40,315 nt of DNA from a virus (Duplodnaviria > Heunggongvirae > Uroviricota > Caudoviricetes), in IMG/VR virus record IMGVR_UViG_2541047797_000007, one strand, 5' to 3'. The position numbers and the translations under genes are program-made. This document shows positions 6,123-29,341 of the stretch, one piece after another. Below the pieces are notes generated by a model that saw only the letters and a program-made list of their open reading frames with translations, was not told where the DNA came from and did not search any database. How positions within the stretch are numbered: position 1 is the stretch's first letter; each line of letters opens with the position of its first letter.

Positions 6123-6211
6123 TTTACATCGCACTCCTCTTGTGCCATAGTAATCGGGCACTGGCAAAATCCAGTGCCGGGATTGGTCTCCCGGATTACT
6201 AAGTGGCGCAT

Positions 6212-6234
6212 ACCACGCCAGACGTGGTTTTTTT
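6212..6234 (+). terminator. Intrinsic terminator/attenuator inside the ant leader
   Basis: Stem ACCACG (6212-6217) / CGTGGT (6223-6228) with loop CCAGA, followed by a run of 7 T (6228-6234). An alternative helix 6204-6208 : 6216-6220 competes with it. Confidence 0.6.
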
Positions 6235-6264
6235 ATGCGTATAGCACAGTCATGCCAGAATTAT

Positions 6265-6340
6265 GGTGGGCTGAATGGGGGTCCGAAAGGACGCCGGTAC
6301 CACTTAGGCCGGTAAGACCAACTCCGTTCAGTTCACCACC
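6265..6340 (+). ncRNA. c4-like antisense RNA (P1/P7 immI type) controlling the antirepressor gene
   Basis: 76-nt multi-helix element. Closing helices are 6265-6269:6336-6340 and 6271-6278:6324-6331. Inside are a GTCC-GAAA-GGAC hairpin (6281-6292) and a CCGG hairpin with an 11-nt loop (6294-6312). Loop CCACTTAG (6300-6307) and single-stranded AGACCAA (6315-6321) are complementary to CTAAGTGG/TTGGTCT boxes found both upstream (6199-6206 / 6183-6189) and downstream (6375-6382 / 6347-6353, overlapping the ant SD). No credible ORF. Confidence 0.65.
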
Positions 6341-6392
6341 ATCTGATTGGTCTCAGCGGTGGTGATGTAATTCGCTAAGTGGAGACGCCATC

Positions 6393-7920: not shown

Positions 7921-7943
7921 AAGCCCGCGACGCGGGCTTTTTT
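7921..7943 (+). terminator. Intrinsic terminator of the 211-aa gene
   Basis: Stem GCCCG (7923-7927) / CGGGC (7933-7937), followed by TTTTTT (7938-7943). Confidence 0.8.
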
Positions 7944-7980: not shown

Positions 7981-8020
7981 GTTAAAAACAAGGCCGCGAA
8001 AGCGGCCTGTGACATGTCAC
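7981..8020 (-). terminator. Terminator of the virion (late) operon preceded by palindrome GTGACATGTCAC
   Basis: The minus strand reads GTGACATGTCAC (8020-8009, containing the TGA stop of the 98-aa gene), then GGCCGC-tttc-GCGGCC (8007-7992), then TTGTTTTTAAC. Confidence 0.75.
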
Positions 8021-8313
8021 GCTCTTTTTCTGAATGATAGCCATTCGAAAAATGATGACATTCCACCGCAGACAATAGCAAAGATGATCCCACCAAAGAA
8101 GAGAAGGCCAGCCTGCCACCACTCCCACCGCCATACATCCACAGCGCCAACCATACCAACAATCGCTCCAACAAATGGAATATAGCTCACGATGAAAGCA
8201 ATGGGGGCTGCAATTATCCAGTGCAATCCCCACCATGATTCAAGCCCAGCCATAATTGCTGCCAACTGAAAAAGACCAACGACGATATAAACAATGAATC
8301 CTATAGCTTGCAT
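8017..8313 (-). CDS. Small integral membrane protein (3 TM), last gene of the virion operon
   Basis: 98 aa, very hydrophobic and Trp/Gly-rich. SD AGGTGA lies upstream of ATG 8313. Confidence 0.7.
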   Translation of the reverse strand: MQAIGFIVYIVVGLFQLAAIMAGLESWWGLHWIIAAPIAFIVSYIPFVGAIVGMVGAVDVWRWEWWQAGLLFFGGIIFAIVCGGMSSFFEWLSFRKRA

Positions 8314-8325
8314 GTAGTCACCTAT

Positions 8326-8499
8326 TTACCCAGTAAAAATCAGAGGCCTCCCCTCAATAAGGCTTGCAACAAGAACTATTCCCTGCACAACAAAGATGAA
8401 CCAGCAAATAGCTTGAGTCTGAGGGTTAAGAAAATATTTGTAGCGGTCAATAAATAACAACCCACCAAAAATTATCACACTCAAAATAATTAAAAACAC
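8326..8499 (-). CDS. Possible small membrane protein (57 aa, GTG start)
   Basis: Not in the supplied track because it is under 60 aa. GTG at 8499 is preceded by AAGGAAG. Translation (M)FLIILSVIIFGGLLFIDRYKYFLNPQTQAICWFIFVVQGIVLVASLIEGRPLIFTG gives two TM helices. It fills the 8314-8508 gap exactly. Confidence 0.35.
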   Translation of the reverse strand: MFLIILSVIIFGGLLFIDRYKYFLNPQTQAICWFIFVVQGIVLVASLIEGRPLIFTG

Positions 8500-8508
8500 A
8501 ACACTTCC

Positions 8509-10983
8509 TTATTGCGGAGTGACATCCTGAGGTCGCCACCAGTATGTCTGGTTAAACTCTTTCTTCGAACGTTGCTCCATTTTACGCAAATAGCCTGGTG
8601 AAAAATACTCCTGCATCTGGTTAAAAATCATGTGATCGAGAGCCGCCTTCAAGTACCAGAGATTCGCACCTGGCATCAAACCTTTCCCCAGCTTCACCAA
8701 ATCACCACCAGTCTGCTCACTCTTCCCTTCCACAGCATTTAACGGTATGCCCTGAGCAATCTTCACTACGTCATCAACCAGACCAGCTACCGGGCCAAGC
8801 ATCGACGCCAGCGCGCCGCTTCCGTACCTAGTGTGATCTGACAATAAAAAGTCACCGTAAAGGCCAAGACCACCACCTTTCAGTAGAGCACCAAGCCAAA
8901 ATTTAGCAGCATCTTCTCCTGTCATCTCGCGAGGATTACGACCAGACGCAAGGTCGTTAAGTTGCTGCGACAAAGCGCCAAGAATGGTCGTACTGGCAAT
9001 AAACGTCGCAATATATGCCGCACGCCCACCAGCAGACGGCATACCCATAGCGCGTGACCAGTGACGCATAACCACCGAGATAGGGAACGATTTAAACAGG
9101 AAAACACTTCTCGTTAATTCACCTTTCCATGTTCCACGCTGAATACCAGAACCGGTTATCAGTTGCTCACGTGCTCCCGGTGTAATAACAGCCATATCAA
9201 CTTCTTCAGTTACGGCACCGAGCAGTTTACGCATTGCCTCAAATTTCACGCGTTCAGGCTCACCAAGATGTTTAACTGCTGAATCAGGGATACGCATAAT
9301 GCTTTCCGGTGTCAGCATCGTATTATTGCCGTTCCCCCAGTCCTCCTGTTGCGCCAGCTTCCATACGCTCCAGTCTGTGTCAGTAATCCCTTTGCTTTTC
9401 AGGATACGAAAATCAGAATCATCGAGGCTACGAAGGTCTGGTGTCCGTGACACTACTTCTCCCAGGCTTCCCATCATGGTTACGCCATAGGCGCGCTTGT
9501 GCGCATCTGACCATGCTGTAAGCCCACTGGCACGCATTACCGCCGTTGCAGCCCAACGAGACACAGACGGCCCCATATTATCCATCGCCCAGCGGTTAAC
9601 GCTGCCAAGTAGAGATTCCATCGCCAGACCAGCGCGGCGCGCCCGCGCAAGTTCTGTACGGTTCGTTGGGTCCATAGCTTCAAGCTGGTTGCGGAATAAC
9701 TGGTTCATTGGAAGGTTGGTAACCTTCGCAGACAGATACATGGTTCCAAGATCAGAGAACGATGACAGCAACGCGGATCCGAGTCTGCTGGCAACCAGCC
9801 AGTTGCGGATATTGTCAGACCATCGCGCGATGTGCGGATTCGCTACAGGCTGTGTCTTTCCGGAAATAAAGTTGTACAGATTCTCTGTGTTGTTCGCCAG
9901 CCGCTCGACTTTACCGGTTTTACTCGGGTTAGCTGTTGCCGTTTCTGCCTTAACCTGATCAAGAAGGGAGCGGAAAACATGATCGGGGTTTGGACCATAT
10001 GTTTCCACCAGAGCAATATCTTTACTGATACCTTCCAGGTGACCGACCATGATTTCCCATAGAGAGCGATCGCCATAAAGTTGTTGATATTGGAGATAGG
10101 AATCAGCATCTTTGAAATGTATCTGTCGTGATGCATTACCACGGTTAGCACGTGCGCCGGAAATTCGCATTCCGGTATCAGTAAGCTTATTCAGCCCACC
10201 AGTAGCGATCGTGTTATAAGCCTCTCCAAGAAATGCAGACAACTCGGCATCGTTCATCAGTTGTCCATCGGCTCGGGTATAATATTTGCGATCCAGCTTA
10301 CCTATAACATCGTTAACCCACTTATCCTTTGATACCGCCCCAACCTTTTCCATAGAATGATGTTGAGGGATCCCCCAGTTTTCGAGATAGCCAATGTCCC
10401 CACCAGCATCATTAAACCGGCGGCGCAGCAGCTCTGTAACTTCTCTCCACGCCTTAGCACCTTTTCTTGCTTTAGCATTGCCAGTATTTTGCCCCCGCAT
10501 TTCATATACCAGGTCACGTACGCCCGCTTCATCTTCAAACAGACCAAAAAAGCGAGGATCAACTGCTTCGAATGCCTCCTGCAATTGACTCAATGCATAA
10601 TCACGGGTGGCTTTTGTTCTGGATTCAACAGAGAGGAAATTAGATTTACCGTCTGCATTAAAAGCTATAGTACGGTTAAGAGCGCCAAGTTTCCCATCAG
10701 CCCCTTGATAGCTATTGATAAATTTATCCAATCTCTGACGCGCGGCTATAGTGAGAGCCACACGACGTTTCTTTAATGCCGCTTCTCGCTGTAATTCTTC
10801 AGATGCCAATTGTGCTGCTCGATATAGCCGCTCTGATTCGGAAAGTTGTCGCCACGACATCGGGTCATCACGAGCAATGGAGCGCATATTTCGATAAATG
10901 CGGTCTTCAATGTTCTGTATTTCTCGCGCCGTTAACATGCGCTGCGCCGCCTGCTGAACCGCCTGTATACATTCCTGTCTCAT
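8509..10983 (-). CDS. Large internal virion / DNA-ejection protein
   Basis: 824 aa. Last of three consecutive very large genes after the tail-tube genes, as in T7-like and epsilon15-like podoviruses. Function assigned by position only. Confidence 0.6.
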   Translation of the reverse strand: MRQECIQAVQQAAQRMLTAREIQNIEDRIYRNMRSIARDDPMSWRQLSESERLYRAAQLASEELQREAALKKRRVALTIAARQRLDKFINSYQGADGKLGALNRTIAFNADGKSNFLSVESRTKATRDYALSQLQEAFEAVDPRFFGLFEDEAGVRDLVYEMRGQNTGNAKARKGAKAWREVTELLRRRFNDAGGDIGYLENWGIPQHHSMEKVGAVSKDKWVNDVIGKLDRKYYTRADGQLMNDAELSAFLGEAYNTIATGGLNKLTDTGMRISGARANRGNASRQIHFKDADSYLQYQQLYGDRSLWEIMVGHLEGISKDIALVETYGPNPDHVFRSLLDQVKAETATANPSKTGKVERLANNTENLYNFISGKTQPVANPHIARWSDNIRNWLVASRLGSALLSSFSDLGTMYLSAKVTNLPMNQLFRNQLEAMDPTNRTELARARRAGLAMESLLGSVNRWAMDNMGPSVSRWAATAVMRASGLTAWSDAHKRAYGVTMMGSLGEVVSRTPDLRSLDDSDFRILKSKGITDTDWSVWKLAQQEDWGNGNNTMLTPESIMRIPDSAVKHLGEPERVKFEAMRKLLGAVTEEVDMAVITPGAREQLITGSGIQRGTWKGELTRSVFLFKSFPISVVMRHWSRAMGMPSAGGRAAYIATFIASTTILGALSQQLNDLASGRNPREMTGEDAAKFWLGALLKGGGLGLYGDFLLSDHTRYGSGALASMLGPVAGLVDDVVKIAQGIPLNAVEGKSEQTGGDLVKLGKGLMPGANLWYLKAALDHMIFNQMQEYFSPGYLRKMEQRSKKEFNQTYWWRPQDVTPQ

Positions 10984-10988
10984 TTAAT

Positions 10989-12791
10989 TTAACCTCTCAA
11001 GAAACACGCCACAGCGACATCAAACAGGCTGGAATCCTGTATTGCCTGCTCACTTTCCCTGTTCGCTTCATCCAGTACTTCACGCGCACTGCGCGATTGT
11101 GGATTACCATCATCATCCAGCACGGTGATTATCATGTCAGGTGATTCAAGCAGCGAGTCTTCAGCTATACGCAGATCAATATCTCCTGCCGGATCTGCCA
11201 TCATTTTTTGTTCTGTCTGTTGCAATATCTTACCGGGCTCAAAAGGAGCTACTTCGTCTGGCGTCCTGACCTCTGCTGTTTTATAGAATGAAACAGCCTG
11301 AGCATTAAGTTCACTTTCTGCCTGCTGTCGTCGTGCCAGTTCTGCTCGAGCTTCAAAAAACTGACCGCCAGGCTCATGCGGTGCCAACGCGTTACGGGAA
11401 AATTCCAGGCGCTCTTGTGCCTGCCGGATTCGTTGGTCAATATCGCGAAGTCTGACCTGTTTATCTGATCGAGCACGAGACAAAGCTTTACCGCTACCGG
11501 TTGGCTCTTCTGCAAGAATTTGTGCGCGCTGTTCAGTGAGATTTTCAATAATTCGTTGGCTATTAGCGATTTCAGACTGGTAAACCTGTCTATCGCCACG
11601 CGGCAAAAGCTGCGCGGCCTGTTCTTCAAGCAACCGATTTTCTATAGCGCGCGCCGTTACTCCATCATCTACAGATGACAGAGCCTCATTAACTGCCTGA
11701 GACAACAGACTCTTGCGCCCAGGAATTTCACTGAAAGATGCAGACTCAACAATGCTGGCAACGTCTACAGGTCTCCCCTGGCTAACATCAGACATAGCTT
11801 TTCGCAGAGCCTGAATGTGAGAATTGCGCGAAAGCACGTTGATCGGCACGCCGGGCGCAATATCAATTTCAGCATGATGAGCGGCATTCGCCGCCAGTGC
11901 AGCATCAACATCAACTGGTGAAAAATTTGGTGCGCTTGTAGACTCGCCGCGAGAGTTCATAAATCTGCCGACACCACCAAACGCCACCCCAAGAACAGCA
12001 TCAATAGCAATTGCCTGTCGATCCAACACATCATACTGGTTAGCCATTTCGCTATAGCCACCATCACGAAGCGTTTTTGCAGTAAGCCCACGCTGTGCCA
12101 TACCGAACGCAATATTTGTACCTGCGGCATAGGCAATATCTGGCGTTGCACGTACTGCTGTTGCTGCGGCGCGTCGCACTGAACTTTCACCCGTCCGCGC
12201 AAGCTGGGCCGCCACACCTTCCGCCAGCGCACCACCAGCACGTAACCCGAGGCTCATAGGGATCAGTGTTCCGGCACCAGCAGTAATACCCTGCACTAAT
12301 CCCGCTTCCTGCGCCGTCCTGAAATCAACACCCTGTGCTGTCAGCCGTTCAAACTCAGAAAAACCCTGTAGAGAAGTTACCGCCGCAGCACCTCCGACCG
12401 GACCACCGAGCGTTGTACCGACAACAGCCTGCCCTCCCATATCGAACAACCCATAAAGGACCTGCCCGGCGGTTCCGGTTGTCGCGGCATCAGGCGTCAG
12501 CCGCTTAACCTGCTGCTCTGCTAGTTTTCTCTGCTCGGCAATGTATGAAACTGAAGTGTCATTGAGCGAGGTGTTTTCGTTAACAAACTGAGCAATCGGG
12601 GATACGATTTTATCCATCCCTGCCCATAGCAACTGATCTGGCTTTGCCACCAGCCCGGAGTACAAACCAGACAATGCCGCTCCTACAGCATTGTCGAAAA
12701 AACCAACATCGCTGTTAAAGCCAGCTGGATTTGATGCTGCTTCGTCAAGCTGCTGATTCTGGTTTACTGGATTAAGGCCAAAGTAACTCAT
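10989..12791 (-). CDS. Internal virion / ejection protein
   Basis: 600 aa, Gly/Ala-rich N-half and coiled-coil C-half. Overlaps the upstream gene by 4 nt. Function assigned by position only. Confidence 0.6.
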   Translation of the reverse strand: MSYFGLNPVNQNQQLDEAASNPAGFNSDVGFFDNAVGAALSGLYSGLVAKPDQLLWAGMDKIVSPIAQFVNENTSLNDTSVSYIAEQRKLAEQQVKRLTPDAATTGTAGQVLYGLFDMGGQAVVGTTLGGPVGGAAAVTSLQGFSEFERLTAQGVDFRTAQEAGLVQGITAGAGTLIPMSLGLRAGGALAEGVAAQLARTGESSVRRAAATAVRATPDIAYAAGTNIAFGMAQRGLTAKTLRDGGYSEMANQYDVLDRQAIAIDAVLGVAFGGVGRFMNSRGESTSAPNFSPVDVDAALAANAAHHAEIDIAPGVPINVLSRNSHIQALRKAMSDVSQGRPVDVASIVESASFSEIPGRKSLLSQAVNEALSSVDDGVTARAIENRLLEEQAAQLLPRGDRQVYQSEIANSQRIIENLTEQRAQILAEEPTGSGKALSRARSDKQVRLRDIDQRIRQAQERLEFSRNALAPHEPGGQFFEARAELARRQQAESELNAQAVSFYKTAEVRTPDEVAPFEPGKILQQTEQKMMADPAGDIDLRIAEDSLLESPDMIITVLDDDGNPQSRSAREVLDEANRESEQAIQDSSLFDVAVACFLRG

Positions 12792-15301
12792 TGCGGAATA
12801 TCTCCGGAGAATCTCTGACGCTTCTGTGTCAGATTAAGAACAACGGGAGAACCATCATCTTTCAGCAGATAACCAGTACCAAGTTTCACCAGGTACTGAC
12901 TATCGCCGTAACTTTGCAAACCATACTGACCAGGCGGTGTTTTTATCCCGGAGCCGACAACTTGTTCATTCCAAGCCTGATTAACCTGCTTATCGAATTG
13001 CTCCGCAGACATTCCCCACGGCAAAAGGACATTCCCCATTCCGTTATAGTCATGCACGCCACCTGTAGCTACGTTAACAGCCTGTTTCCAGACATCATTG
13101 TCAATTTCGCCTGATACCACGCCTTTTTTCGCCATCACACCAGCGTAATAATCCTTTGCGATCTCGTATGCCATTGATGCCCCCTGAGCGTCACCAGCAA
13201 ATGCATCCTTCACCATGTCAGAAAACTCAAGGCGAAGATCAGCATCTTTAGGCATCGGAATACCTTTCGCATCATCAGTACCTTTACGAGCCGCCGCGCC
13301 AGCAAGAATTGTCTGCGCAGCGGTTTCAGGAGACACGGAAACATCCGGATTAAACCAGTTTTTTTCTGCCAAAATACCACCTGGCTTATCCATCAGTATC
13401 CCGGCAACGGCAGCAGATGGAGCGTTGGCACTGATCTGCTGTAGTGCTGACATATACACCTGCCCACCACCAGTGCTCTGCCTGATGGTATCGAGATATG
13501 CTGCCTGTTGGGAAACTGGAGCATCACGAAAGAAAACACCGATCTGATTGGCCTCGTCTTTGGAAAAGAACGTCAGTGGAGTGCCATATGACTTAGCAAG
13601 GTCACTGACCTGAGCGGCACGCAAGGCAACGCTCTGTCCAAAGTTATCCTTATTGCTCATGTCGATAGGCTTTGCCTGTCCGGCGGCAAGAGAGAACTGC
13701 ACAGGATCCGATTGCCGCTGCTTTATCACCTGATTTGCAGCCGAAACAACGTTGTCATAAAGAGCTGCGCGTGCCGCATACCCCTCCCCTGTCTCACCAG
13801 TATCCGGGCGTAATTGCTCAACATATGCTGTAATGCTGCTTGTCGGCATGTTGCGGAAAGAGCCTATATACTGTCCGGCGATTTGCGTATTTCTGAACTC
13901 GGTATATCGCAGGTTTCCTTCTCTGACTCCATAAGCTGCAATAAAATCAGCCTCACCAGGTGGGTTAGGAAATTCAACGCCACGCATATACGCAGATGTC
14001 GCATCGCGAACTTGGCTGTCAATCATCGTTTTATATTCAGCCTGCTGCTGCCGACGCAGTTGATCCGCCTGTCGCATAAAACTTGCCTGCGCCTCAGGAG
14101 ATGCCGCATCGAATGCTGCATTACCGGTATAGCGTTTGGTGTTGGTTGGAATTGTTGATAAACCAAGTGCTGCACTGACACCAGCAGTTAACTGCTGATC
14201 ACTGTATGGCTGGCTACCGTTCTCATGATGGATAATGGCTGCACAAAGCGCCTTCAGGGTATCAGGATTAGATGCATCGAGAGGCTCATCAGCAGAAACG
14301 CCAAGTTGTTCGCACACTGCTTTGATATACGACATAGTGTCATTTTTATCAGTAGGCGGTGCCCAGCGATTAATTATCTCGCTGACGGTATCGATACCCT
14401 GCCGCTGATACGACATCAGGTTACGCCCTAATGCACGAATCCCGTGCTCAGGTGTTTCGAATTTAGCAAATCGACCATCATCACCGGTCTGGCCTACCCA
14501 CGGATTAGTTTTGCTGTATTCGAGATTTCCTGGGTTATTGTTGCGTATGCCACGGGCACGCTCGGAAGAGTCATTATCTGCTACAGCACGGCGAGCTCCA
14601 GCAGCAGTATCACTTAACTCGCCATTACTTTGGATGAATGCGGTCGCATTGTTTGCCGACCACTGGGACAATGCGGCATCAGCAACCTTCTCTTTAAACT
14701 CGATTTTCTTGGCCTGTATTTGCTCGTCGCTCCAGCCATGCGCAACGCCGTAATCCTCAATTTGCTGGAAAGTTTGCTTATTAGCCAATACGTATGCGGC
14801 GTTGTCGCCATACAATGCTGCGGCATTTTTACCATTGTTCAGCAGCGTCGCCTGAAACTGGCCTTCTTCGTAGGCATTTATTTGCCCTATCTCGTGCCGC
14901 CCGGCCTGCGTAGTGAACTGAATGCGCTGCTGCTGCGCCTGCTGCATGAAAGCATTACGAGCCTGTTCATCCGGCAGCGACATAGCCAGTTGCTCGACCT
15001 GGGCATCAAACTGCTGCGTATACTCCTGACCTTTTCCAATAGCATTTTTCCCTTTCAGGTTAAGCAATCCTGTTTCAGGATTATTCAGCAGATCACTGCT
15101 TATCTGACTGAGGTTAAGAGATGCCTCCTGAGCCAGAGCGATATTGGCACGCTGTTTTGCCTGCCCCAAAACATCAATTGCCTCTGTCCCTGCCCGAACA
15201 AAAGCATCACTAATACCTGGCTGAGAAAACGTCTGCAAGCCTGCTGACTGAACTCCACGACTCTCAACCTGACGTCCGGATACTGTTGGTACGACTGGCA
15301 T
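12788..15301 (-). CDS. Internal virion / ejection protein with a putative muralytic domain
   Basis: Start taken at MPVVPTVSG (SD GGAGGA; ATG overlaps the upstream TAA as TAATG), giving 837 aa. Segment RGIRNNNPGNLEY...GIRALGRNL..Y...G..T...II.RWAP resembles a conserved phage virion-associated cell-wall-acting domain (from memory, unverified). Confidence 0.6.
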   Translation of the reverse strand: MPVVPTVSGRQVESRGVQSAGLQTFSQPGISDAFVRAGTEAIDVLGQAKQRANIALAQEASLNLSQISSDLLNNPETGLLNLKGKNAIGKGQEYTQQFDAQVEQLAMSLPDEQARNAFMQQAQQQRIQFTTQAGRHEIGQINAYEEGQFQATLLNNGKNAAALYGDNAAYVLANKQTFQQIEDYGVAHGWSDEQIQAKKIEFKEKVADAALSQWSANNATAFIQSNGELSDTAAGARRAVADNDSSERARGIRNNNPGNLEYSKTNPWVGQTGDDGRFAKFETPEHGIRALGRNLMSYQRQGIDTVSEIINRWAPPTDKNDTMSYIKAVCEQLGVSADEPLDASNPDTLKALCAAIIHHENGSQPYSDQQLTAGVSAALGLSTIPTNTKRYTGNAAFDAASPEAQASFMRQADQLRRQQQAEYKTMIDSQVRDATSAYMRGVEFPNPPGEADFIAAYGVREGNLRYTEFRNTQIAGQYIGSFRNMPTSSITAYVEQLRPDTGETGEGYAARAALYDNVVSAANQVIKQRQSDPVQFSLAAGQAKPIDMSNKDNFGQSVALRAAQVSDLAKSYGTPLTFFSKDEANQIGVFFRDAPVSQQAAYLDTIRQSTGGGQVYMSALQQISANAPSAAVAGILMDKPGGILAEKNWFNPDVSVSPETAAQTILAGAAARKGTDDAKGIPMPKDADLRLEFSDMVKDAFAGDAQGASMAYEIAKDYYAGVMAKKGVVSGEIDNDVWKQAVNVATGGVHDYNGMGNVLLPWGMSAEQFDKQVNQAWNEQVVGSGIKTPPGQYGLQSYGDSQYLVKLGTGYLLKDDGSPVVLNLTQKRQRFSGDIPQ

Positions 15302-15846
15302 TATAATCCTCCGGGTAATCTGGTTCCTGCTGCCGCCCCGATTGGCGCAGGGGTGCTTTGAGTAAACGGACTCCACGTCCCACCAAACATCTGGTACGCA
15401 CCGTATGCCTTCAGAGGCGCAGTGAGCAATGTTGTTGCTGCTCCCACATTCCCCTGTTTACGGGCTGAACTGGCTTCTGCTTTATAGTTGGCAGCCTGAA
15501 CCTGATAACCGTAAGCCTCGCGTTGCGCGTTATTCACCGTCGTTAGCGAATCAAGAGCGCCAAACTGAGCAGTGTCACCAAATATATCCAGCGCGTTACC
15601 TGTAGATAAATCAGCGCCGGTCGCCCCCATTGTCGCCGCCTGTGTACCAAGCCGCTGTCGGGTCTCTCTGCGCCGTTGCTCAGCTTCAGCGTTACCTCTG
15701 TTTATTGCATCATTTGCCTGAGCTGTGGCTATATCTGCGTTCGCTTCTGCAACCTTCGAGGCATACTTTCCCTGTTGGTACTGGGTGTATGCCTGAATGC
15801 CACTCATGGCGAGCATTGCGCCACCAGCAATAACCGGATCGCACAT
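15301..15846 (-). CDS. Small internal virion protein (T7 gp14-like position)
   Basis: 181 aa, Ala/Gly/Gln-rich with a hydrophobic N-terminus. Translationally coupled on both sides. Confidence 0.55.
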   Translation of the reverse strand: MCDPVIAGGAMLAMSGIQAYTQYQQGKYASKVAEANADIATAQANDAINRGNAEAEQRRRETRQRLGTQAATMGATGADLSTGNALDIFGDTAQFGALDSLTTVNNAQREAYGYQVQAANYKAEASSARKQGNVGAATTLLTAPLKAYGAYQMFGGTWSPFTQSTPAPIGAAAGTRLPGGL

Positions 15847-16310
15847 TATTTTCTCTCCATGTGAAATCTGTGGAAATTAAGACCAAGAGCACCATAAGGC
15901 GCGGCTTCTTCAAGCCTGAATCCAAGCCAGTGCAGCCATGCTTTGGCAACATGGTTTCGCTCGTCGACGTAGTTTTCCAGGCGCGGATAAACTGCCAGCA
16001 TCTGCTGCAATACAGGGCGGCAGTGGCGCAGAAATGTCTTCTGATATTTTTCAATACGGCTGGTTCCGACCAGCCAGGGCGTACCATTGCCACCGATCAT
16101 TGACGCCGGAGATACACCAAACATGGTTACCAGTTCTCCGTTCGCGAACCCTGACCAAGCCATAGTCGCAGTGCGAAGACCAACACGCAGCGCATCTTCG
16201 GTAGTCATCAGCGATACCGCATACAGTTCGTCAATATCAGCCTGACGAACATCCGGCAAAATCATCTGAAGATGCTCTTCGGTAGCGGGAATAATTTGAA
16301 CATCAATCAT
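15846..16310 (-). CDS. Virion-associated protein, 154 aa (possibly acetyltransferase-fold; T7 gp13-like position)
   Basis: ATGA-type overlaps with both neighbours. Function uncertain. Confidence 0.5.
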   Translation of the reverse strand: MIDVQIIPATEEHLQMILPDVRQADIDELYAVSLMTTEDALRVGLRTATMAWSGFANGELVTMFGVSPASMIGGNGTPWLVGTSRIEKYQKTFLRHCRPVLQQMLAVYPRLENYVDERNHVAKAWLHWLGFRLEEAAPYGALGLNFHRFHMERK

Positions 16311-25138: not shown

Positions 25139-26614
25139 TTAAGCATAGGGATCGTAATCTGTGATGGCCTTGCCTTGCTGGTTCTGCTGCCCGGGAATTC
25201 GCAGACGCTTCGACACAGGAAAAGCAAACGTCAGCAGTAGCGCATCGCCTTTACCCGGCGAACGCCCAAGCCGCTCCTTGATATCTTCCTTCGGTTCGAT
25301 AACGATTTTACCGTCCACGCGAACTTTGTACTCTGCCGCCGACAGGTCGTCTGCAGTTTCCTGGTCATCCAGCATGCCGCCCAGCCTCAGCCATGTCTTA
25401 CATGAGTTGAACATCTCCCCACGCTTGTTGAGCATCTGCGGGTCAGTAGACGCGCCACCGAACGGAACAAGTTGCCATGTACGACCCCAGCCGTCACCGA
25501 TTGACTTCAGACCAGTTCCGTAACCGAAGTCGATGAACACTGCGTCAGCCTGGTACTGGTCTTCAAAGTCAGCGATACGCTTCGCCATAATCAGATCGTC
25601 AGTGGTCTTGTTGCCAGTCCACAGCACCTTACTGTGCAGCCCCTGCCGCAGGTATATCACAGCGTCATCAACGCCTGAGTATGCCGGGTCAACGCCGATT
25701 ATCACCGGAGCATGTGCAACCTGCGCAGCGGTGACCACCCGTTTCATTGCCTCGTCAGTAAGTCCGGTAGGGATAAACTGCAATTCAGATGCATCCGGGA
25801 ATATGCCGCGCACACGGATTTTAACGAAGTCGCTGTCTTCCCCGTAGTCATCAACCCATTTCTGCAACTGCTGTTTGTTGGTGCCTTCCACCGTCCGGCT
25901 GTCAATCTGCGCAGTTTTCCAGCGGTGTTTATATTTGCGGAAACATTCGCGGAAACGTCCGGTATTACGCGTCGGGTTTCCGAACGCCACCCAGATAATC
26001 TCAGTGTCTTCGTCCGTTAGCGCACCCTCGGCAACTTCCCACACCAGATCCGCAATGTTCGACGCTTCATCGAATACCACGATGATGCGTTTGCGCTCGT
26101 TGTGTAGTCCGGCGAATGCCTCAGTGTTGTGCTCAGACCAGGGTATTGCGTCAGCTCGCCACCGCTTGTCGTGTCCAGGATCATTGCTGTACATCGCGGT
26201 AGCGGTACAGGTAAACCAGTCTTTCGTGATAGCAAGGTTCGACCACTTGATAATTTCCGGCCAGGTCTTCGTTCGTAGCTGGTTGTCGGTGTTGGCGGTC
26301 ACCACGACCTTACAATCCTCGCAAGTGGACATGCCCCAGTTGATCAGCATTGAGATGAATGCGGATTTACCAATACCGTGACCCGAAGCACGTGCCAGCA
26401 TAAGCGGCTGATAGCGCGTCTCTGGATTCTGCAGGTGATCACGTATCTCTCGGAACGCATCAGCCTGCCACTTACGTGGGCCGGTAGCATGTGCCAGTTC
26501 AGTCCCCTCTTCCCCCCACGGGAACGCATAGAGGGCATAGCCAAGCGGATCGTGAGTGAACCCTGCAATATCCTCGATCAACTGCTCTTCAGGAGATAAC
26601 GCTGTATCTGTCAC
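25139..26614 (-). CDS. terL: Terminase large subunit
   Basis: 491 aa. Walker A-like ARASGHGIGKS, acidic Walker B (IIVVFDEAS) and a C-terminal nuclease-like half. Overlaps the small subunit gene by 4 nt. Confidence 0.85.
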   Translation of the reverse strand: MTDTALSPEEQLIEDIAGFTHDPLGYALYAFPWGEEGTELAHATGPRKWQADAFREIRDHLQNPETRYQPLMLARASGHGIGKSAFISMLINWGMSTCEDCKVVVTANTDNQLRTKTWPEIIKWSNLAITKDWFTCTATAMYSNDPGHDKRWRADAIPWSEHNTEAFAGLHNERKRIIVVFDEASNIADLVWEVAEGALTDEDTEIIWVAFGNPTRNTGRFRECFRKYKHRWKTAQIDSRTVEGTNKQQLQKWVDDYGEDSDFVKIRVRGIFPDASELQFIPTGLTDEAMKRVVTAAQVAHAPVIIGVDPAYSGVDDAVIYLRQGLHSKVLWTGNKTTDDLIMAKRIADFEDQYQADAVFIDFGYGTGLKSIGDGWGRTWQLVPFGGASTDPQMLNKRGEMFNSCKTWLRLGGMLDDQETADDLSAAEYKVRVDGKIVIEPKEDIKERLGRSPGKGDALLLTFAFPVSKRLRIPGQQNQQGKAITDYDPYA

Positions 26615-27207
26615 TGATTACCATCCTGACGTTCTTTGAGTCGCTTCCTGGCTGCTGCTATGCGATCAGCAATTGTCACATTCACATTAACATCCAGACG
26701 TTCTTTGAACGCGTTGACATCAACATGCTTACCAATCAGCTCAAGGTTCTTCACCTTGTCAGGCCATTTAATTTTTTTGAGGATTGTCTCTATCGAATCC
26801 TCGTTCATGTTCATGATGGTCGATGACAGATCAAAGCCACTAAGCGTAGTGCGCCAGATTTTCGGCCACTCACGGATTGGTTTAAGGCTCCCATCGTCGT
26901 TGAGGATGTCGATCACGTCCATCTGGTCGATCTCCACCAGGCGCATGAGAACGTAATCAGCACTGACGCGCATTCGTTTGTTGCGCTCCTCCATCAACTC
27001 GGCAATCCGTTTTTGAATGCGTTCATCGCGCATCATGACGCTGGCTTTAACTGCCGCTGTATTTGGGGAGAATCCTGCGTTAATCGCTGCCTGAGTCTGG
27101 TTTTCAGGCGTTTTGATGTATGACTGGCAATAAGCCTCCTGCATTGCTGTTAGTGGCTTAAATTGCGTTGATTTGCGTTTATAGGTTTTAGGTTCAGCAG
27201 GCATCAT
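26611..27207 (-). CDS. terS: Terminase small subunit
   Basis: Start taken at MMPAEPKTYKRK (198 aa). The longer track ORF (to 27303) would run through an intrinsic terminator and two operator palindromes. The HTH-like LTAMQEAYCQSYIKTPENQTQAAINAGFS is typical of small terminases. Confidence 0.75.
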   Translation of the reverse strand: MMPAEPKTYKRKSTQFKPLTAMQEAYCQSYIKTPENQTQAAINAGFSPNTAAVKASVMMRDERIQKRIAELMEERNKRMRVSADYVLMRLVEIDQMDVIDILNDDGSLKPIREWPKIWRTTLSGFDLSSTIMNMNEDSIETILKKIKWPDKVKNLELIGKHVDVNAFKERLDVNVNVTIADRIAAARKRLKERQDGNQ

Positions 27208-27240
27208 AACCACCGTGGTAATAGTTACCGTTGTGGTAAT
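27206..27240. promoter_or_regulatory. Two adjacent operator palindromes at the 5' end of terS
   Basis: ATAACCACCGTGGTAAT (27206-27222) and GTTACCGTTGTGGTAAT (27224-27240). Confidence 0.55.
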
Positions 27241-27250
27241 AGTACCATGC

Positions 27251-27276
27251 AAAATAAAGCCGCCATAGTTGGCGGC
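27251..27276 (-). terminator. Strong intrinsic terminator between the early-right operon and terS
   Basis: The minus strand reads GCCGCC-aactat-GGCGGC (27276-27259) followed by TTTATTTT (27258-27251). Confidence 0.8.
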
Positions 27277-27316
27277 AGTATCCAAAACCGTCAAATTCAT
27301 CATGCATAATCTACTC

Positions 27317-27328
27317 GTGACATGTCAC
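27317..27328. promoter_or_regulatory. Palindrome GTGACATGTCAC (third copy), containing the TGA stop of the 115-aa gene
   Basis: Exact 12-bp palindrome. The other copies are at 8009-8020 and 25053-25064. Confidence 0.5.
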
Positions 27329-27672
27329 ACTATTAATTTCGTTTCATGCCAGCCTTTAGTCACCCAGCATTGCGAGTCACCATTACACGGGCATGAATTA
27401 ACTGGAACTCTCTCGCCGCACTTACCGCAACGTTTTCTGCTGATCGATTTTATACGCCCGCGCACACGTGCATCATCCTGGCGGATCAGCAGCGCGATGT
27501 ACTCGGCCATTTCATAGGGATCGCGACCAGGGCGCCGGGCGGCGCAGTTCCGCGCCAGCATTTCCTGCTCCTGCTTATCCAGCACCAGTTCAATTTTGCG
27601 CTCACCGGCGGCGGACTGCCGAGCGCGCTGCGCGGCTTTGCGTTCTGCGGGGGATTTAGCCACGAATCGCAC
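27325..27672 (-). CDS. Basic protein with C-terminal Cys-rich zinc-ribbon; candidate late-gene regulator
   Basis: 115 aa. N-terminal basic helix region (AERKAAQRARQSAAGERK). C-terminus is CGKCGERVPVNSCPCNGDSQCW. Last gene before the terminator/terS. Function inferred from position only. Confidence 0.6.
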   Translation of the reverse strand: MRFVAKSPAERKAAQRARQSAAGERKIELVLDKQEQEMLARNCAARRPGRDPYEMAEYIALLIRQDDARVRGRIKSISRKRCGKCGERVPVNSCPCNGDSQCWVTKGWHETKLIV

Positions 27673-27778
27673 TCCACGCCAGATTGATTAATGACTCCCA
27701 GGTAATATAAACCCGGATACCAGCAGCCAGGCCGAAACCAATCACCATGGCATAAAGCAGAGCGTTGCACTTGTTCAT
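27656..27778 (-). CDS. Possible 40-aa membrane peptide
   Basis: MNKCNALLYAMVIGFGLAAGIRVYITWESLINLAWSAIRG. Its ATG shares a base with the upstream TGA (TGATG), and it overlaps the next gene by 17 nt. Not in the track because it is under 60 aa. Confidence 0.35.
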   Translation of the reverse strand: MNKCNALLYAMVIGFGLAAGIRVYITWESLINLAWSAIRG

Positions 27779-28320
27779 CACTTCACCTCCTGCTGCTGTG
27801 CTGCTGGCATTTCACGCCAGTGCGTAACTGAGTGCGGATCCGGATATTCGGTGCCATCATCCCAGCGATTGCCATTCCACATTGCAGACCACATCTCACC
27901 GTCTTCATACATGACCATTACCGGAATTAACTTATCCGGCATTCTCTCACTACAGCTTATCCAACCATCCGGAATTACCGGAGTTGGTCCATCGAATTCG
28001 GGCATGTCAGGACCTTTTCTGATAGCTTTAGCCAGCTCCAGCGGGTCATCGTAAAGCCAGTCGCCAGTTTGTGGGTGATTTGCTTCTGCAAGCTGCGCAG
28101 CCCATTCAAGACCATCTTTTTGACCTTGGAGATAATCAAGCGGCAACTCTTCATGATTACTTGCAGGTTCGGCACTATCAGCTTCGCGCCGCTTCTGTAG
28201 CTCTGCTGCCATTGCTCTCACGACTTCAACTGGTGCCCTTGCAGCAAACTCTATGTTGGTGATCAGCTCATTAAGATATTGCTCGCTGGGATACTGTTTC
28301 TTATTGGTAATAGTGGTCAT
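27778..28320 (-). CDS. DUF551-type phage protein
   Basis: 180 aa. The C-terminal W-rich module (GWISCSERMP...VMV..EDGEMWSAMWNGNRW......P..VTHW.EMP) is typical of DUF551. Confidence 0.65.
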   Translation of the reverse strand: MTTITNKKQYPSEQYLNELITNIEFAARAPVEVVRAMAAELQKRREADSAEPASNHEELPLDYLQGQKDGLEWAAQLAEANHPQTGDWLYDDPLELAKAIRKGPDMPEFDGPTPVIPDGWISCSERMPDKLIPVMVMYEDGEMWSAMWNGNRWDDGTEYPDPHSVTHWREMPAAQQQEVK

Positions 28321-28330
28321 GGGTTAGTCC

Positions 28331-29341
28331 TTATTCGCAAACGCCAGCATAAACGCTGCTGCAAACTGATTTGTCATTTGACTCTGCCAGCAGGTCAAAT
28401 TGAGCACCGCCTCTGGTGGTCATGGCCCAGTCACGGTAAGACTCAATACCGTATGCATCGACAGTAACGACGTCGATTCGTTTTTCTGCTCTGCGCGGGT
28501 CGTGCGTTGACGGAAAGAACGTTGAATTTCCACGGCGTGAGCAGGCAGCGACAAATCGCTCCCACTCTGCTACCCGTTTAATTTCTTCCGGCCAGCGAGT
28601 GAAAATTTCTGCCAGTTCTGATTTTCTGGCATGGATACATGGCATGCATCCAACCCGACTACAGCCCTGCTGGTAAAGTGGATTTGGCTTAATGCCATGG
28701 CGTTTGGCCAAGGAAAATACCTCTTCGTGCGTCCATTTCAATATTGGGCGGTACACATGCAGACCAGGGGTATTATCAGCATCTTCTTCCCACTCAGGCA
28801 GGCCAGCGCGGGCTGGGGATTCTTGGGCGCGAACTCCCTGCCAAAGAATAACTTCATCGTATTTTTCTAGCGCGGGGAGAACTATCTGATCGCGTACCGG
28901 ATCGTGCTTAAGTTCCAGAGAGCAGAAACGTGCTTTTGTACTCGGGAACCTGCCCTTCCACATGCACAAATCAAGGAATGGGTTTCCTGTTGGCTTGAGG
29001 ATATTCAGCGCCTGGGTGATACGTTCTGCGGCCTCCTCGTTAGACATGCCACATTCTTCAACCAGAGATATAGGCCATTTCTCAGCAATGAATTTCCGCT
29101 TACCTTCAATCTTTCGATTAAAATCAGCCTTCACTCGGGTTACCGGGCCGAGCAAAGATTCAAGATAGTCCAGGTATTCCATTGTCTGCGGGTGCTCATG
29201 TCCGGTATCCGCGAAAACAGTTATATGAGGGACACTGTTTTCAACGGCAAGGATCCATTGAGCAAGGCTGTCTTTCCCGCCAGATACGGAAATAACGTTG
29301 ATTGTGCTGGTTGCTTTGCAGCGTTTGTCGATGTTGCTCAC
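28331..29341 (-). CDS. PAPS-reductase-like PP-loop ATPase family protein
   Basis: 336 aa. PP-loop SVSGGKDS near the N-terminus and a Cys-rich C-terminal part (GCSRVGCMPC). Confidence 0.75.
   Translation of the reverse strand: MSNIDKRCKATSTINVISVSGGKDSLAQWILAVENSVPHITVFADTGHEHPQTMEYLDYLESLLGPVTRVKADFNRKIEGKRKFIAEKWPISLVEECGMSNEEAAERITQALNILKPTGNPFLDLCMWKGRFPSTKARFCSLELKHDPVRDQIVLPALEKYDEVILWQGVRAQESPARAGLPEWEEDADNTPGLHVYRPILKWTHEEVFSLAKRHGIKPNPLYQQGCSRVGCMPCIHARKSELAEIFTRWPEEIKRVAEWERFVAACSRRGNSTFFPSTHDPRRAEKRIDVVTVDAYGIESYRDWAMTTRGGAQFDLLAESNDKSVCSSVYAGVCE

Follow-up and report, generated by a model that had tools for sequence, protein, structure and literature searches.

A palindrome of fixed spacing in an epsilon15-like prophage and its genetic linkage to the gp49 gene family

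Three copies of a palindrome and the genes around them

The window, that is, the whole stretch of 40,315 nucleotides analysed here, is an epsilon15/phiV10-like (Uetakevirus) E. coli prophage. It contains exactly three exact copies of the 12-bp palindrome GTGACATGTCAC (copies A, B and C in Table 1), where 0.01 are expected; none of 100 shuffles held three or more, which bears out an earlier sequence-only reading that had judged the repetition non-random. Scanning the window with one mismatch gave no further copy, and with two mismatches a single match, at 22518, which is at chance level. No description of the general form of the motif, GTGAC-N2-GTCAC, was found in the literature. Four identities were rejected for GTGACATGTCAC: matS (its spacer is 3 bp rather than 2), the SlmA site (C and A stand at positions 5 and 6, where SlmA needs G and a pyrimidine), an Rfam RNA (the Rfam search gave no family match) and a CRP site, the last as in the sequence-only reading.

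Table 1. Features surrounding the three palindrome copies in the window (strand given as a dot where the feature has none)
Feature	Position	Strand	Remarks
Terminator of convergent antirepressor-region operon	7921..7939	+	
Intrinsic terminator hairpin, AGGCCGCTTTCGCGGCCT then TGTTTTT	7991..8008	-	directly adjoins copy C
Palindrome copy C	8009..8020	.	over TGA stop of the virion operon's last gene
98-aa small membrane-type ORF	8017..8313	-	variable last gene of the virion operon; PHROG 3075
36-aa ORF	24939..25048	+	TAA stop 4 nt before copy B; read from sequence
Palindrome copy B	25053..25064	.	cargo-gene side of the hairpin, 4-5 nt away
Hairpin with T-runs on either side	25069..25088	.	bidirectional terminator, large terminase gene (-) versus convergent cargo ORF (+)
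Large terminase subunit gene	25139..26614	-	3' end faces copy B
Small terminase subunit gene	26611..27207	-	epsilon15-type start 27207; Pfam Terminase_2, E 1.6e-29
Intrinsic-terminator-like hairpin, GCCGCCAACTATGGCGGC then TTTATTTT	27259..27276	-	40 nt downstream of copy A
Palindrome copy A, GTGACATGTCAC	27317..27328	.	over TGA stop of gp49-family gene; upstream of terminase genes
gp49-family gene	27325..27663	-	112 aa; longest ORF to 27672, 115 aa

The placement of the copies largely agrees with that reading: TGA stops lie inside copies A and C, the TAA of the 36-aa ORF precedes copy B, and a terminator-like hairpin stands beside each copy. The gene ending at copy A is the last of the early-right operon, and the equivalent of the hairpin that follows it is annotated in epsilon15 as a rho-independent terminator. 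The longest small terminase ORF (26611-27303) spans this hairpin, as does the gene in the RefSeq annotation; since the annotated small terminase start of epsilon15, SPC32H and Tyrion (27207 in the window) lies downstream of the equivalent hairpin, the hairpin is probably, though not certainly, intergenic.

The hairpin next to copy B has an equivalent in phiV10 that is annotated as a terminator. The claim that this copy precedes a terminator holds only for the convergent plus-strand ORF; for the terminase transcript the palindrome lies past the hairpin. In relatives the corresponding cargo gene is longer, and the 36-aa ORF appears to represent its C-terminal part; this C-terminal coding sequence also adjoins the palindrome in IMG/VR relatives and in Tyrion. 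In phiV10 and SPC32H other small genes take the place of the 98-aa ORF at copy C, with palindrome and terminator retained. Because a plus-strand terminator faces it, copy C belongs to a convergent junction; copies B and C thus both mark convergent junctions with bidirectional or back-to-back terminators.

Conservation in epsilon15-like phages

The identical 12-mer occurs at all three syntenic sites in epsilon15, Tyrion and SPC32H, whereas phiV10 has two exact copies and one with a single mismatch (site A), and BUCT711 holds the 12-mer at two of the three sites. These relatives share about 80% DNA identity with flanks diverged or replaced, yet the 12-mer is kept. Exact equivalents of site A are found in epsilon15 (39612), Tyrion and SPC32H, and 78 of 80 IMG/VR loci with close gp49-family homologues carry the motif there; those of site B lie in epsilon15 at 2142, phiV10 at 2262, Tyrion at 2702 and SPC32H at 2145, and those of site C in epsilon15 at 19517, phiV10 at 19493, Tyrion at 20377, SPC32H at 19634 and BUCT711 at 18526. 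Homologous phages therefore retain the motif beside terminators at three syntenic operon ends, the comparison that the sequence-only reading had named as a test of its proposal. Its pairing of palindrome and terminator is kept at these ends but does not define the motif, which lies 1-40 nt from the hairpin and can precede or follow it.

At all three sites, and in a P2-like lineage described below, similarity to relatives ends 0-7 nt from the palindrome. At least nine different upstream genes end at the site C palindrome among IMG/VR relatives and at least six different cargo genes at site B, most with TAA-C(A/G)CC ahead of the motif. This pattern raises the possibility that the palindrome is chiefly a recombination anchor, either a short conserved sequence or the target of a recombinase or nuclease in cassette swaps, so that its position at gene ends would reflect cassette insertion rather than transcription control. 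The motif directly follows stop codons, as integron attC sites do, a betaproteobacterial homologue comes after a tyrosine integrase, and the phage encodes RecE/RecT-type recombination genes. However, any conserved functional island between non-essential genes resembles such a junction. In the phages the motif has no linked recombinase (the integrase serves attP), the 112-aa protein is too small for a recombinase, and the relatives compared bear no trace of inversions or deletions between the identical copies. Recombination alone also leaves unexplained the phased arrays and the betaproteobacterial copy upstream of a start codon that are described below, and we regard it as improbable.

Genetic linkage to the gp49 family

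The protein encoded over copy A is a homologue of epsilon15 gp49, PhiV10p55 and N15 gp46 (112-115 aa, PHROG 536), a family also present in Aeromonas phages. Its N-terminal helix, AERKAAQRARQ, is basic and near-invariant; a strand-helix-helix core is predicted to follow, and a Cys cluster lies at the C-terminus. The fold is probably ribbon-helix-helix plus Cys cluster, an assignment that is suggestive only.

Conservation, spacing and genetic linkage to this family characterise the motif. Ten phage genomes with a gp49-family homologue contain 27 copies of GTGAC-N2-GTCAC and none of the swapped GTCAC-N2-GTGAC; spacings of 0, 1, 4 and 6 gave no copies each and spacing 3 gave one, with no enrichment of half-sites. 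P2 and Pseudomonas phage YA3, the latter with epsilon15-like virion genes and a lambdoid early region, have neither a motif copy nor a family member at HMM E<=1. P2-like Yersinia myoviruses carry GTGACGCGTCAC at the gp49-family stop codon (0 or +10 nt) in 51 of 52 loci, with just five other motif copies in 855 kb. N15 and phiKO2 have GTGACTGGTCAC over the stop codon of the family gene and two additional syntenic copies each, and the overlap recurs in homologues of 48-60% identity (IMG/VR; Serratia and Pseudescherichia genomes). Comparative genomics thus links gene and motif in podo-, myo- and siphoviruses, and the 115-aa Cys-rich protein that the sequence-only reading had named as a candidate is genetically tied to the motif in several unrelated lineages.

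The association is not confined to stop codons. Five family members, those of Vibrio phage K233 and of loci L112, L119, L187 and L265, lack the motif at their own stop codon; L112, L119, L187 and K233 have copies elsewhere in the same locus, K233 three in all, one of them 30 nt upstream of the small terminase gene. Copies within coding regions occur in BUCT711 (26462), in repA of N15 and phiKO2, and in L112. The last sense codon before an overlapped stop is TTG, GTG, CTG, GCG, CCG or ATG; because these encode five different residues and always end in G, it is the DNA and not the peptide that is conserved. Each lineage has a uniform central dinucleotide (AT; GC; TG/CA), and the predicted beta-strand tracks it: RKIELVLD with AT, NEIRARLE or QELRLKVS with GC/AC, and TRRDWVLE with TG.

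Betaproteobacterial integrase-linked elements encode a second, unrelated protein family of 82-84 aa, which has a basic arm but no Cys cluster. In L272 and L391-395 copies of the motif precede the ATG of its gene by 17 nt, lie within the gene and cover the TGA stop, and in L354 it stands 16 nt upstream of a gene similar to this family. We count this as support, as it would represent an independent replication of the gene-motif association; profile comparison of the two families was marginal (hhalign P 0.0044, probability 8%), and the betaproteobacterial relatives weakly match the NCBIfam CopB (RepA2) family. In distant bacteria, among them Sorangium and Jettenia, the exact 12-mer forms tandem arrays spaced by 18, 22 or 44 bp, a phasing typical of operators to which proteins bind cooperatively. 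Since no family member was detected near the Sorangium arrays or near several AT-rich intergenic copies in Providencia, other binders may exist.

One such binder could be a host protein that the phage borrows to mark operon ends, for example a MatP- or SlmA-like nucleoid protein, the LexA-regulated ribbon-helix-helix protein YbfE or another regulator. The half-sites are those of matS, GTGAC[AG]N[TC]GTCAC, the 5-N2-5 layout is that of the SlmA site, the hosts of the motif-bearing phages (Enterobacterales, Vibrio) appear similar to the MatP-bearing taxa, the Providencia copies lie on chromosomes, and the L354 protein weakly matches the NCBIfam "LexA regulated protein" (E 0.027). Against this, the 3-bp-spacer form is essentially absent from these phages and from 500 prophages, and the bases that SlmA needs are not those of the motif. 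A site for a host protein should not follow the stop codon of a single phage gene through podo-, myo- and siphoviruses, nor should it be missing from P2 and YA3 or have a centre that differs between phage lineages of one host group. A host factor thus has a low probability.

A candidate boundary operator and its relation to known systems

The explanation to which we give about even confidence is that a symmetric dimer of the gp49-family protein, a small early product of the phage itself, binds the motif as a double-stranded DNA operator, which would thereby serve as a boundary or insulator at transcription-unit borders. The basic N-terminal helix would read the invariant GTGAC arms, and a dimeric ribbon-helix-helix-like core would cover the centre, whose two bases differ by lineage. 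As a rule one copy accompanies the 3' end of the family gene, and the epsilon15-like phages have two extra copies at the ends of the terminase and virion operons; all three sites are borders of both transcription units and exchangeable cassettes beside intrinsic terminators. The bound protein may act as a roadblock or insulator in either direction, reinforcing the partly bidirectional terminators next to it and separating early, terminase, virion and convergent cargo/antirepressor transcription. A perfectly symmetric site at the convergent junctions B and C suits such a block. The tie between protein and site is drawn from genome comparison, and two points weigh against a roadblock: the protein belongs to the early lytic operon, and why read-through from early to late genes should be blocked at that stage is not obvious; and the motif directly before a ribosome-binding site, in N15, K233 and epsilon15-like variants, is also compatible with RNA-level control of the gene downstream.

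RNA-level action, as a hairpin at operon boundaries, was one of the options raised in the sequence-only reading. The motif would act as the RNA hairpin GUGA(CNNG)UCAC, or as the non-template strand in the transcription bubble, and be recognised during transcription, for example by gp49 through its arginine-rich N-terminus, with an effect on termination at the following hairpin or on how the next gene is translated. Each epsilon15-like site is read into some transcript in which the motif immediately precedes a terminator hairpin; in N15, phiKO2, K233 and epsilon15-like variants a Shine-Dalgarno sequence follows the motif by 0-20 nt; and the AERKAAQRARQ helix is rich in arginine, as N-type antiterminator peptides are. 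The hairpin itself is weak, however, at just -1.2 kcal/mol and no better than shuffles. Its arms are invariant, with no compensatory changes, and variation falls in the would-be loop, which is the reverse of a boxB-type pattern. Most lineages keep the palindrome complete through its centre, for which an RNA has no need, and the asymmetric centres in N15 and K233 are not consistently sense-oriented. The position of copy B behind the terminase terminator and the 22-bp phased arrays, which fit duplex DNA operators, argue in the same direction, and the RNA reading is unlikely.

In N15, phiKO2, K233 and some epsilon15-like variants the motif adjoins a ribosome-binding site or a LexA-box promoter in place of a terminator; a strong promoter with a LexA box begins 7 nt past it in Klebsiella-type relatives. 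The palindrome could be a promoter element, giving weak promoters that diverge from it or an operator at which a repressor covers a -35 box, as CopB does at PrepA. GTGACA matches the -35 hexamer at five of six positions in both orientations, a scan gives GTGACA-18-CATGAT at site A and GTGACA-18-AATGAT at site C, and in plasmid R1 the promoter-like TTGAGT-17-TAGATT, which we take to be PrepA, repressed by CopB, follows the copB stop codon. Such matches are, however, no commoner than in shuffles, epsilon15, N15 and the P2-like phages have no conserved -10 at a fixed distance, terminators directly follow sites B and C, and the R1 region lacks GTGAC-N2-GTCAC. A promoter element is very unlikely.

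Among known systems, the proposed operator recalls matS, the MatP site of the E. coli Ter macrodomain, in its identical 5-bp arms, its palindromy, its dispersed copies and a dimeric binder with a ribbon-helix-helix element; it differs in its 2-bp spacer and in lying at gene ends on phage genomes, where matS is reported absent, rather than over a chromosome domain, and gp49 has no sequence similarity to MatP. The SlmA site GTGAGTACTCAC is likewise a 12-bp perfect palindrome of 5-N2-5 form with positions 1-4 and 9-12 identical, but SlmA is a TetR-type helix-turn-helix protein that prefers a pyrimidine at position 6. CopB (RepA2) of IncFII plasmid R1 is a small protein that combines a basic arm at its N-terminus with a ribbon-helix-helix-type core and acts directly downstream of its own stop codon, as is proposed for gp49, whereas gp49 has an additional Cys-cluster domain and a regulated promoter at the phage sites is only putative. 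The operators of Arc and Mnt (P22), CopG, omega and ParR/ParG overlap promoters, while here two of three sites are 3'-end sites beside terminators; likeness to Arc/Mnt-type repressors depends on the suggestive fold assignment of gp49. The SopB centromere sites of N15 and phiKO2 (in phiKO2, GTGCGACCACGGTCGCAC four times) are also identical palindromes at few scattered places, often beside promoters or terminators, but have another sequence and another binder; both phages possess both systems, and the epsilon15-like phages integrate and have no partition genes. We know of no described phage system dedicated to pairing a roadblock site with intrinsic terminators at operon ends. The proposed mode would be that of the LacI, CodY and CcpA roadblocks, in which a tightly bound dimer on a symmetric site halts RNA polymerase from either direction.

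The palindrome in the prophage and its relatives

The window holds an E. coli prophage of the epsilon15/phiV10 type (Uetakevirus) with its late genes on the minus strand. Its terminase region is 96-98% identical to that of phiV10-type phages and about 81% identical to that of Salmonella phage epsilon15, and prophages 100% identical to the window are present in several E. coli chromosomes. Nearly the whole prophage is covered, because the left end (1-1200; terminator-like hairpin at about 1115-1140) is apparently host DNA and the right end (39059-40315) is the integrase gene; the prophage ends after the Rz gene, at about 1289.

The 12-bp palindrome GTGACATGTCAC, of the general form GTGAC-N2-GTCAC, occurs exactly three times in the window (sites A, B and C in the table) against an expectation of 0.01, and three or more copies were reached in none of 100 shuffles of the window. 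There is no one-mismatch copy in the window, and the single two-mismatch match is at chance level. Thus, the sequence-only reading was right to call the threefold occurrence non-random. The genes around the sites, placed by reference to annotated relatives, are listed in the table. The motif stands on either side of the neighbouring hairpin, 1-40 nt away. Sites B and C are convergent junctions whose terminators are bidirectional or back-to-back, and at site B the motif follows the terminator relative to the terminase transcript. Site A carries a caveat: the longest ORF of the small terminase and its RefSeq annotation read across the hairpin, while the annotated start in epsilon15, SPC32H and Tyrion (equivalent to 27207 in the window) lies beyond it.

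Positions of the palindrome, of adjoining features of the window and of related copies in other sequences
Feature	Position	Strand	Surroundings
Palindrome, site A	27317-27328		Overlaps the stop of the last early-right gene (epsilon15 gp49 / PhiV10p55 homologue); followed by a terminator, then the terminase genes
Palindrome, site B	25053-25064		Just beyond the terminator closing the terminase operon; a convergent cargo gene faces it
Palindrome, site C	8009-8020		Overlaps the stop of the variable small last gene of the virion operon; adjoins the virion-operon terminator
ORF with TGA inside site A	27325-27672	minus	
ORF with TGA inside site C	8017-8313	minus	
36-aa ORF		plus	TAA stop 4 nt before site B
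Terminator-like hairpin near site A	27276-27259	minus	
Terminator-like hairpin near site B	25069-25088		
Terminator-like hairpin near site C	8008-7991	minus	
Terminator of convergent antirepressor-region operon	7921-7939		Faces the virion-operon terminator at site C
Tandem arrays in other bacteria	L322 1846-1923; L278 6122-6177; L341 200-247; L367; L374; L340		22-bp spacing (18 bp in Jettenia)
Morganellaceae / Providencia copies	L310, L346, L116, L144, L158; L326, L333, L344		

In epsilon15 (39612, 2142 and 19517), Tyrion and SPC32H, all three positions carry the identical 12-mer; of the phiV10 copies, two are exact and the third has a single mismatch, and Klebsiella phage BUCT711 has two of the three sites. 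The motif is present in 78 of 80 IMG/VR loci with close homologues of epsilon15 gp49, and these loci (450 kb) contain 127 motif copies versus none of the swapped control, GTCAC-N2-GTGAC. The junction of gene and site is found in 699 of 5426 complete E. coli genomes (about 13%). Similarity of the flanks between relatives ends 0-7 nt from the motif: the gene that ends at site C differs among relatives (at least nine genes), as does the cargo gene that ends at site B (several). Since the flanks are not conserved, the palindrome and its terminator form a constant island amid exchangeable cassettes. The sequence-only reading had staked its case on conservation of the palindrome beside terminators in homologous phages, and the pair is indeed kept in the relatives.

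A degenerate fourth copy lies at the end of the lysis operon, over the stop of the Rz (spanin) gene, in epsilon15 (26618-26629, GTGACATGGCAT) and SPC32H (26696-26707, GTGACATGTCAT). Its counterpart in the window, at about 1289, has decayed further to ATAGCATGGCAT, with a TAG stop, and is lost as a motif.

Several other features lie near the sites. Between the hairpin at site A and the probable start of the small terminase gene are two symmetric repeats of the type GGTAAT(A)GT(T)ACC (about 27215-27247); because the epsilon15 record marks their equivalent as a binding site of the prophage repressor, the immunity repressor may repress the late operons directly. In the early-right operon, the gp49-family gene follows right after genes for a DUF551 protein (27778-28320, minus) and a protein with a PAPS-reductase domain (28331-29341, minus); in SPC32H the latter carries the annotation DNA-sulfur-modification protein. 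The approximately 450 bp from the portal region to site B (24500-24950) contain only short minus-strand ORFs of 68-87 aa; the counterpart has an annotated RNase III site in epsilon15 and an annotated tRNA-Arg in several relatives. ARAGORN detected no tRNA in the window and Rfam nothing in 24500-24950 at E<=1; judged by eye, 24907-24950 resembles a tRNA remnant. On the plus strand, 6158-6343 matches isrK (6158-6234) and C4 antisense RNA (6259-6343) above the Rfam gathering score, an antirepressor immunity module of the P1/P7/N15 c4-icd-ant type within an epsilon15-like prophage. The operon of this module converges on site C, and the corresponding ant operon of N15 is closely preceded by one motif copy.

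Association with the gp49 protein family

The gene that ends in site A encodes a homologue of epsilon15 gp49 (PHROG 536), a protein of 112-115 aa with distant homologues in phages whose virions differ considerably. GTGACGCGTCAC contains the stop of the homologue in the P2-like Yersinia phage vB_YenM_201.16, and the motif is 0 or 10 nt from the stop in 51 of 52 IMG/VR loci of this lineage, which contain in their 855 kb only five other motif copies and no swapped arrangement. N15 and phiKO2 have the stop codon inside GTGACTGGTCAC and two further copies at syntenic positions. Of the three copies in Vibrio phage K233, one precedes the small terminase gene by 30 nt. The exact 12-mer of the epsilon15 type also sits on the stop of homologues of 48-60% identity in IMG/VR and in Serratia and Pseudescherichia genomes. 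Several IMG/VR and genome matches to the 14-mer are coding or chance occurrences. Ten genomes encoding a family member contain 27 copies of GTGAC-N2-GTCAC; the swapped arrangement and spacings of 0, 1, 4 and 6 are absent from them, spacing 3 occurs once and half-sites are not enriched. P2 and Pseudomonas phage YA3 lack both the protein and the motif; the virion genes of YA3 are epsilon15-like, but its early region is lambdoid, with Q. In the phage collection, two contexts outside the epsilon15 group gave no match.

Ahead of the embedded TGA, the final sense codon is TTG, GTG, CTG, GCG, CCG or ATG. As this codon encodes five different residues yet always has G as its third base, it is the DNA rather than the peptide that is conserved. 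Thus, in epsilon15-like, P2-like and N15-type phages the motif is genetically linked to the family of the 115-aa protein, which had already been proposed from the sequence as a candidate partner.

The gp49 family is small (185 clusters at 50% identity) and has no sequence match in Pfam, NCBIfam or the PDB, nor to MatP or GCN4. A basic helix, AERKAAQRARQ, is near-invariant in the family alignment, like the DNA arms, whereas a predicted strand varies with the central dinucleotide: RKIELVLD with AT, NEIRARLE or QELRLKVS with GC/AC and TRRDWVLE with TG. This parallel variation suggests that the helix may read the arms and the ribbon the centre.

A scan of bacterial genomes over 596 Gb gave mostly chance matches, as expected at that size; however, on a betaproteobacterial contig (L272, 6625-6905) the motif lies 17 nt ahead of the ATG of an 83-aa ORF and again over its TGA, and a variant lies within the gene. 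All three positions are repeated, each as GTGACACGTCAC, for a 73%-identical homologue on five contigs (L391-L395), where the gene directly follows a tyrosine integrase gene, and another locus (L354) has the motif 16 nt upstream of the start of a similar gene. The proteins of this second family (82-84 aa) combine a basic arm at the N-terminus, TATERQRxSRAARKLQR, with helix patterns resembling those of ribbon-helix-helix repressors, and lack a Cys cluster; their NCBIfam matches are weak (CopB/RepA2, E 0.016; LexA-regulated protein YbfE, E 0.027). Profile similarity to the gp49 family is marginal (P 0.0044) and confined to the basic arm and the following strand. Even so, an arm of the same type with the same site over the stop in two families seems unlikely to be coincidence.

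The exact 12-mer also forms tandem arrays with a spacing of 18, 22 or 44 bp in Sorangium, Jettenia and others. Cooperative protein operators are phased in this way. The 8-kb stretches around the arrays gave no match to the N-terminal domain of gp49. In two unrelated phages (L154, 1410-2303; L192, 10336-11046), the 14-mer lies within arrays of GTGAC half-sites inside genes of the PHROG 'replication initiation protein', where the arrays encode Val-Thr repeats just after an ERKRRQR basic motif resembling the gp49 N-terminal helix. A search of the window for clusters of GTGAC half-sites, such as ori iterons would make up, found none. In a conserved Morganellaceae locus, the 14-mer comes 3 nt past a TAA stop, and at least three AT-rich intergenic copies are spread over different scaffolds of Providencia burhodogranariea. 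These hosts may have another binder, as no gp49-family gene was found near the copies.

Candidate binder and possible roles

The feature is real and conserved: a spacing-specific, symmetric DNA motif, genetically linked to a protein family, lies at transcription-unit borders. The motif may well be the site of the gp49-family protein, a reading toward which the linkage tilts the balance slightly, and a dimer of the protein would then bind the duplex. The alternative of a host factor as the binder could draw on the likeness of the motif to host sites, and has against it that the motif accompanies the phage gene in three phage types.

Another alternative, put forward by the sequence-only reading as an RNA hairpin, is an RNA or non-template-strand element. 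At each epsilon15-like site the motif precedes a terminator hairpin in some transcript; however, the hairpin folds at -1.2 kcal/mol, no better than shuffles, the arms are invariant without compensatory changes while the centre varies, and no Rfam family covers any copy, either at the gathering score or at E<=1. The RNA-hairpin reading is therefore weak. That full palindromy is kept in most lineages and that the motif at site B comes after the terminator for the terminase transcript likewise argue for DNA rather than RNA.

As for what a DNA-bound protein might do, a roadblock or insulator function specifically is a tentative reading that we rate as rather unlikely. A symmetric protein block would halt polymerases arriving from both directions; such a two-way block is favoured among possible roles because sites B and C are convergent junctions, the motif occurs on either side of the hairpin and all three sites are covered. 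At site A, the block would part the early-right operon from the terminase operon. More doubtful still is a general scheme in which small proteins with a basic arm and a ribbon-helix-helix fold, together with GTGAC-N2-GTCAC, would form an undescribed and widespread boundary system: in temperate phages, palindromes at operon ends would be clamped and copies perhaps bridged into loops, as MatP does on the closely similar matS, giving protein-reinforced, direction-independent insulators that isolate late, terminase and cargo or antirepressor units and also set the slots for cassette exchange between phages.

Two further alternatives concern the position of the motif. It could be a recombination anchor, as the abrupt end of flank similarity beside it might suggest; integron attC, however, shares only the post-stop position, the motif being a 12-bp perfect palindrome and the sole integrase of these phages being of the attP type. 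It could also be a -35-like promoter element by virtue of GTGACA, a reading in which the promoter-like matches do no better than shuffles. In Klebsiella-type relatives (L089, L090, L107, L118, L199), a strong sigma-70 promoter lies 7-21 nt after the palindrome at site A and is overlapped by a LexA box (TACTGT-N8-ACAGTA). P2-like loci have a LexA-like box downstream of the motif as well, and the motif often adjoins SOS-controlled, antirepressor-type modules.

If the pairing of protein and site holds, an orphan regulator family, also found in P2-like, N15-like and Vibrio phages and so far known by a database label only, gains a DNA target. The pairing would give a first handle on how transcription units are separated in epsilon15-like phages, for which we know of no defined late-gene control element and for which a literature search on late control found nothing. 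It would also explain why the same 12 bases recur at the edges of variable cargo slots, which would help in annotating prophages and engineering insertion sites.

Comparison with known sites and systems

The literature on the 12-mer or its variants yielded no relevant paper, and the motif is unannotated in the records of epsilon15, phiV10, N15 and phiKO2; as no description was found, the feature is probably undescribed. A small, putatively DNA-binding phage protein with a palindromic site is of a familiar kind. What sets it apart is that the motif sits on the stop of the putative regulator's own gene and at operon 3' ends next to terminators, that it spans phages with different virions and that it nearly matches two host sites that organise the chromosome.

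The palindrome is not an intrinsic terminator, as it folds at only -1.2 kcal/mol and lacks a T-run; the neighbouring hairpins do qualify. It does not fit RNA antitermination elements of the N/boxB or put type, given invariant arms, a variable centre, a marginal hairpin and an orientation that is not consistently sense, nor antitermination of the Q/qut type, since the sites have no consistent promoter and a separate late activator resembling Q is present in N15 and phiKO2. That the phiV10 record begins within the motif merely reflects where it was cut, just after the stop of the last gene; a genome end, cos or pac site is rejected, because the motif tracks the gp49 gene rather than the type of terminase, and N15 and P2 are both cos phages.

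Among protein sites, CRP (TGTGA-N6-TCACA) was correctly set aside in the sequence-only reading: TGTGA and TCACA would be 4 nt apart, and conservation does not extend to the flanking T and A. Ribbon-helix-helix operators share the perfect palindrome and, in other bacteria, the 22-bp and 44-bp arrays. Sites B and C do not overlap promoters, terminators following there; an operator overlapping a promoter is possible at site A in the Klebsiella-type relatives, where a LexA-box promoter lies at a distance of 7 nt, and in the betaproteobacterial family, where the motif precedes the ATG by 16-17 nt. Over 21 residues the second family shares 48% identity (P 6.7e-4) with the basic region of GCN4, and the half-sites of bZIP proteins are TGAC/GTCA. 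The key bZIP residues are nevertheless unaligned and the gp49 family gives no signal, so the resemblance is only a lead. CopB / PrepA of plasmid R1 has a similar gene-then-site layout, and no such motif occurs in the CopB operator. N15 and phiKO2 also carry dispersed SopB centromere palindromes, which differ in sequence from the motif.

The closest likenesses are to the two host sites. The SlmA site, GTGAGTACTCAC, has an equal layout but requires, by published mutational data, G, T, A and G at positions 1, 2, 4 and 5 and a pyrimidine at 6 of each half, whereas the motif has C at 5 and A at 6. matS, the MatP site of the Ter macrodomain, is GTGAC-RNY-GTCAC, a 13-bp sequence with identical arms and a 3-bp spacer instead of 2 bp. 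Every copy of the motif has the 2-bp spacer, the 3-bp form occurring nowhere in the window and once in the ten phage genomes, and hhalign of the gp49 family against MatP gave a probability of 0.2%, so the motif is not a matS site and the gp49 family does not resemble MatP. The near-identity nevertheless raises the question of cross-talk between the phage motif and both matS and the SlmA site.
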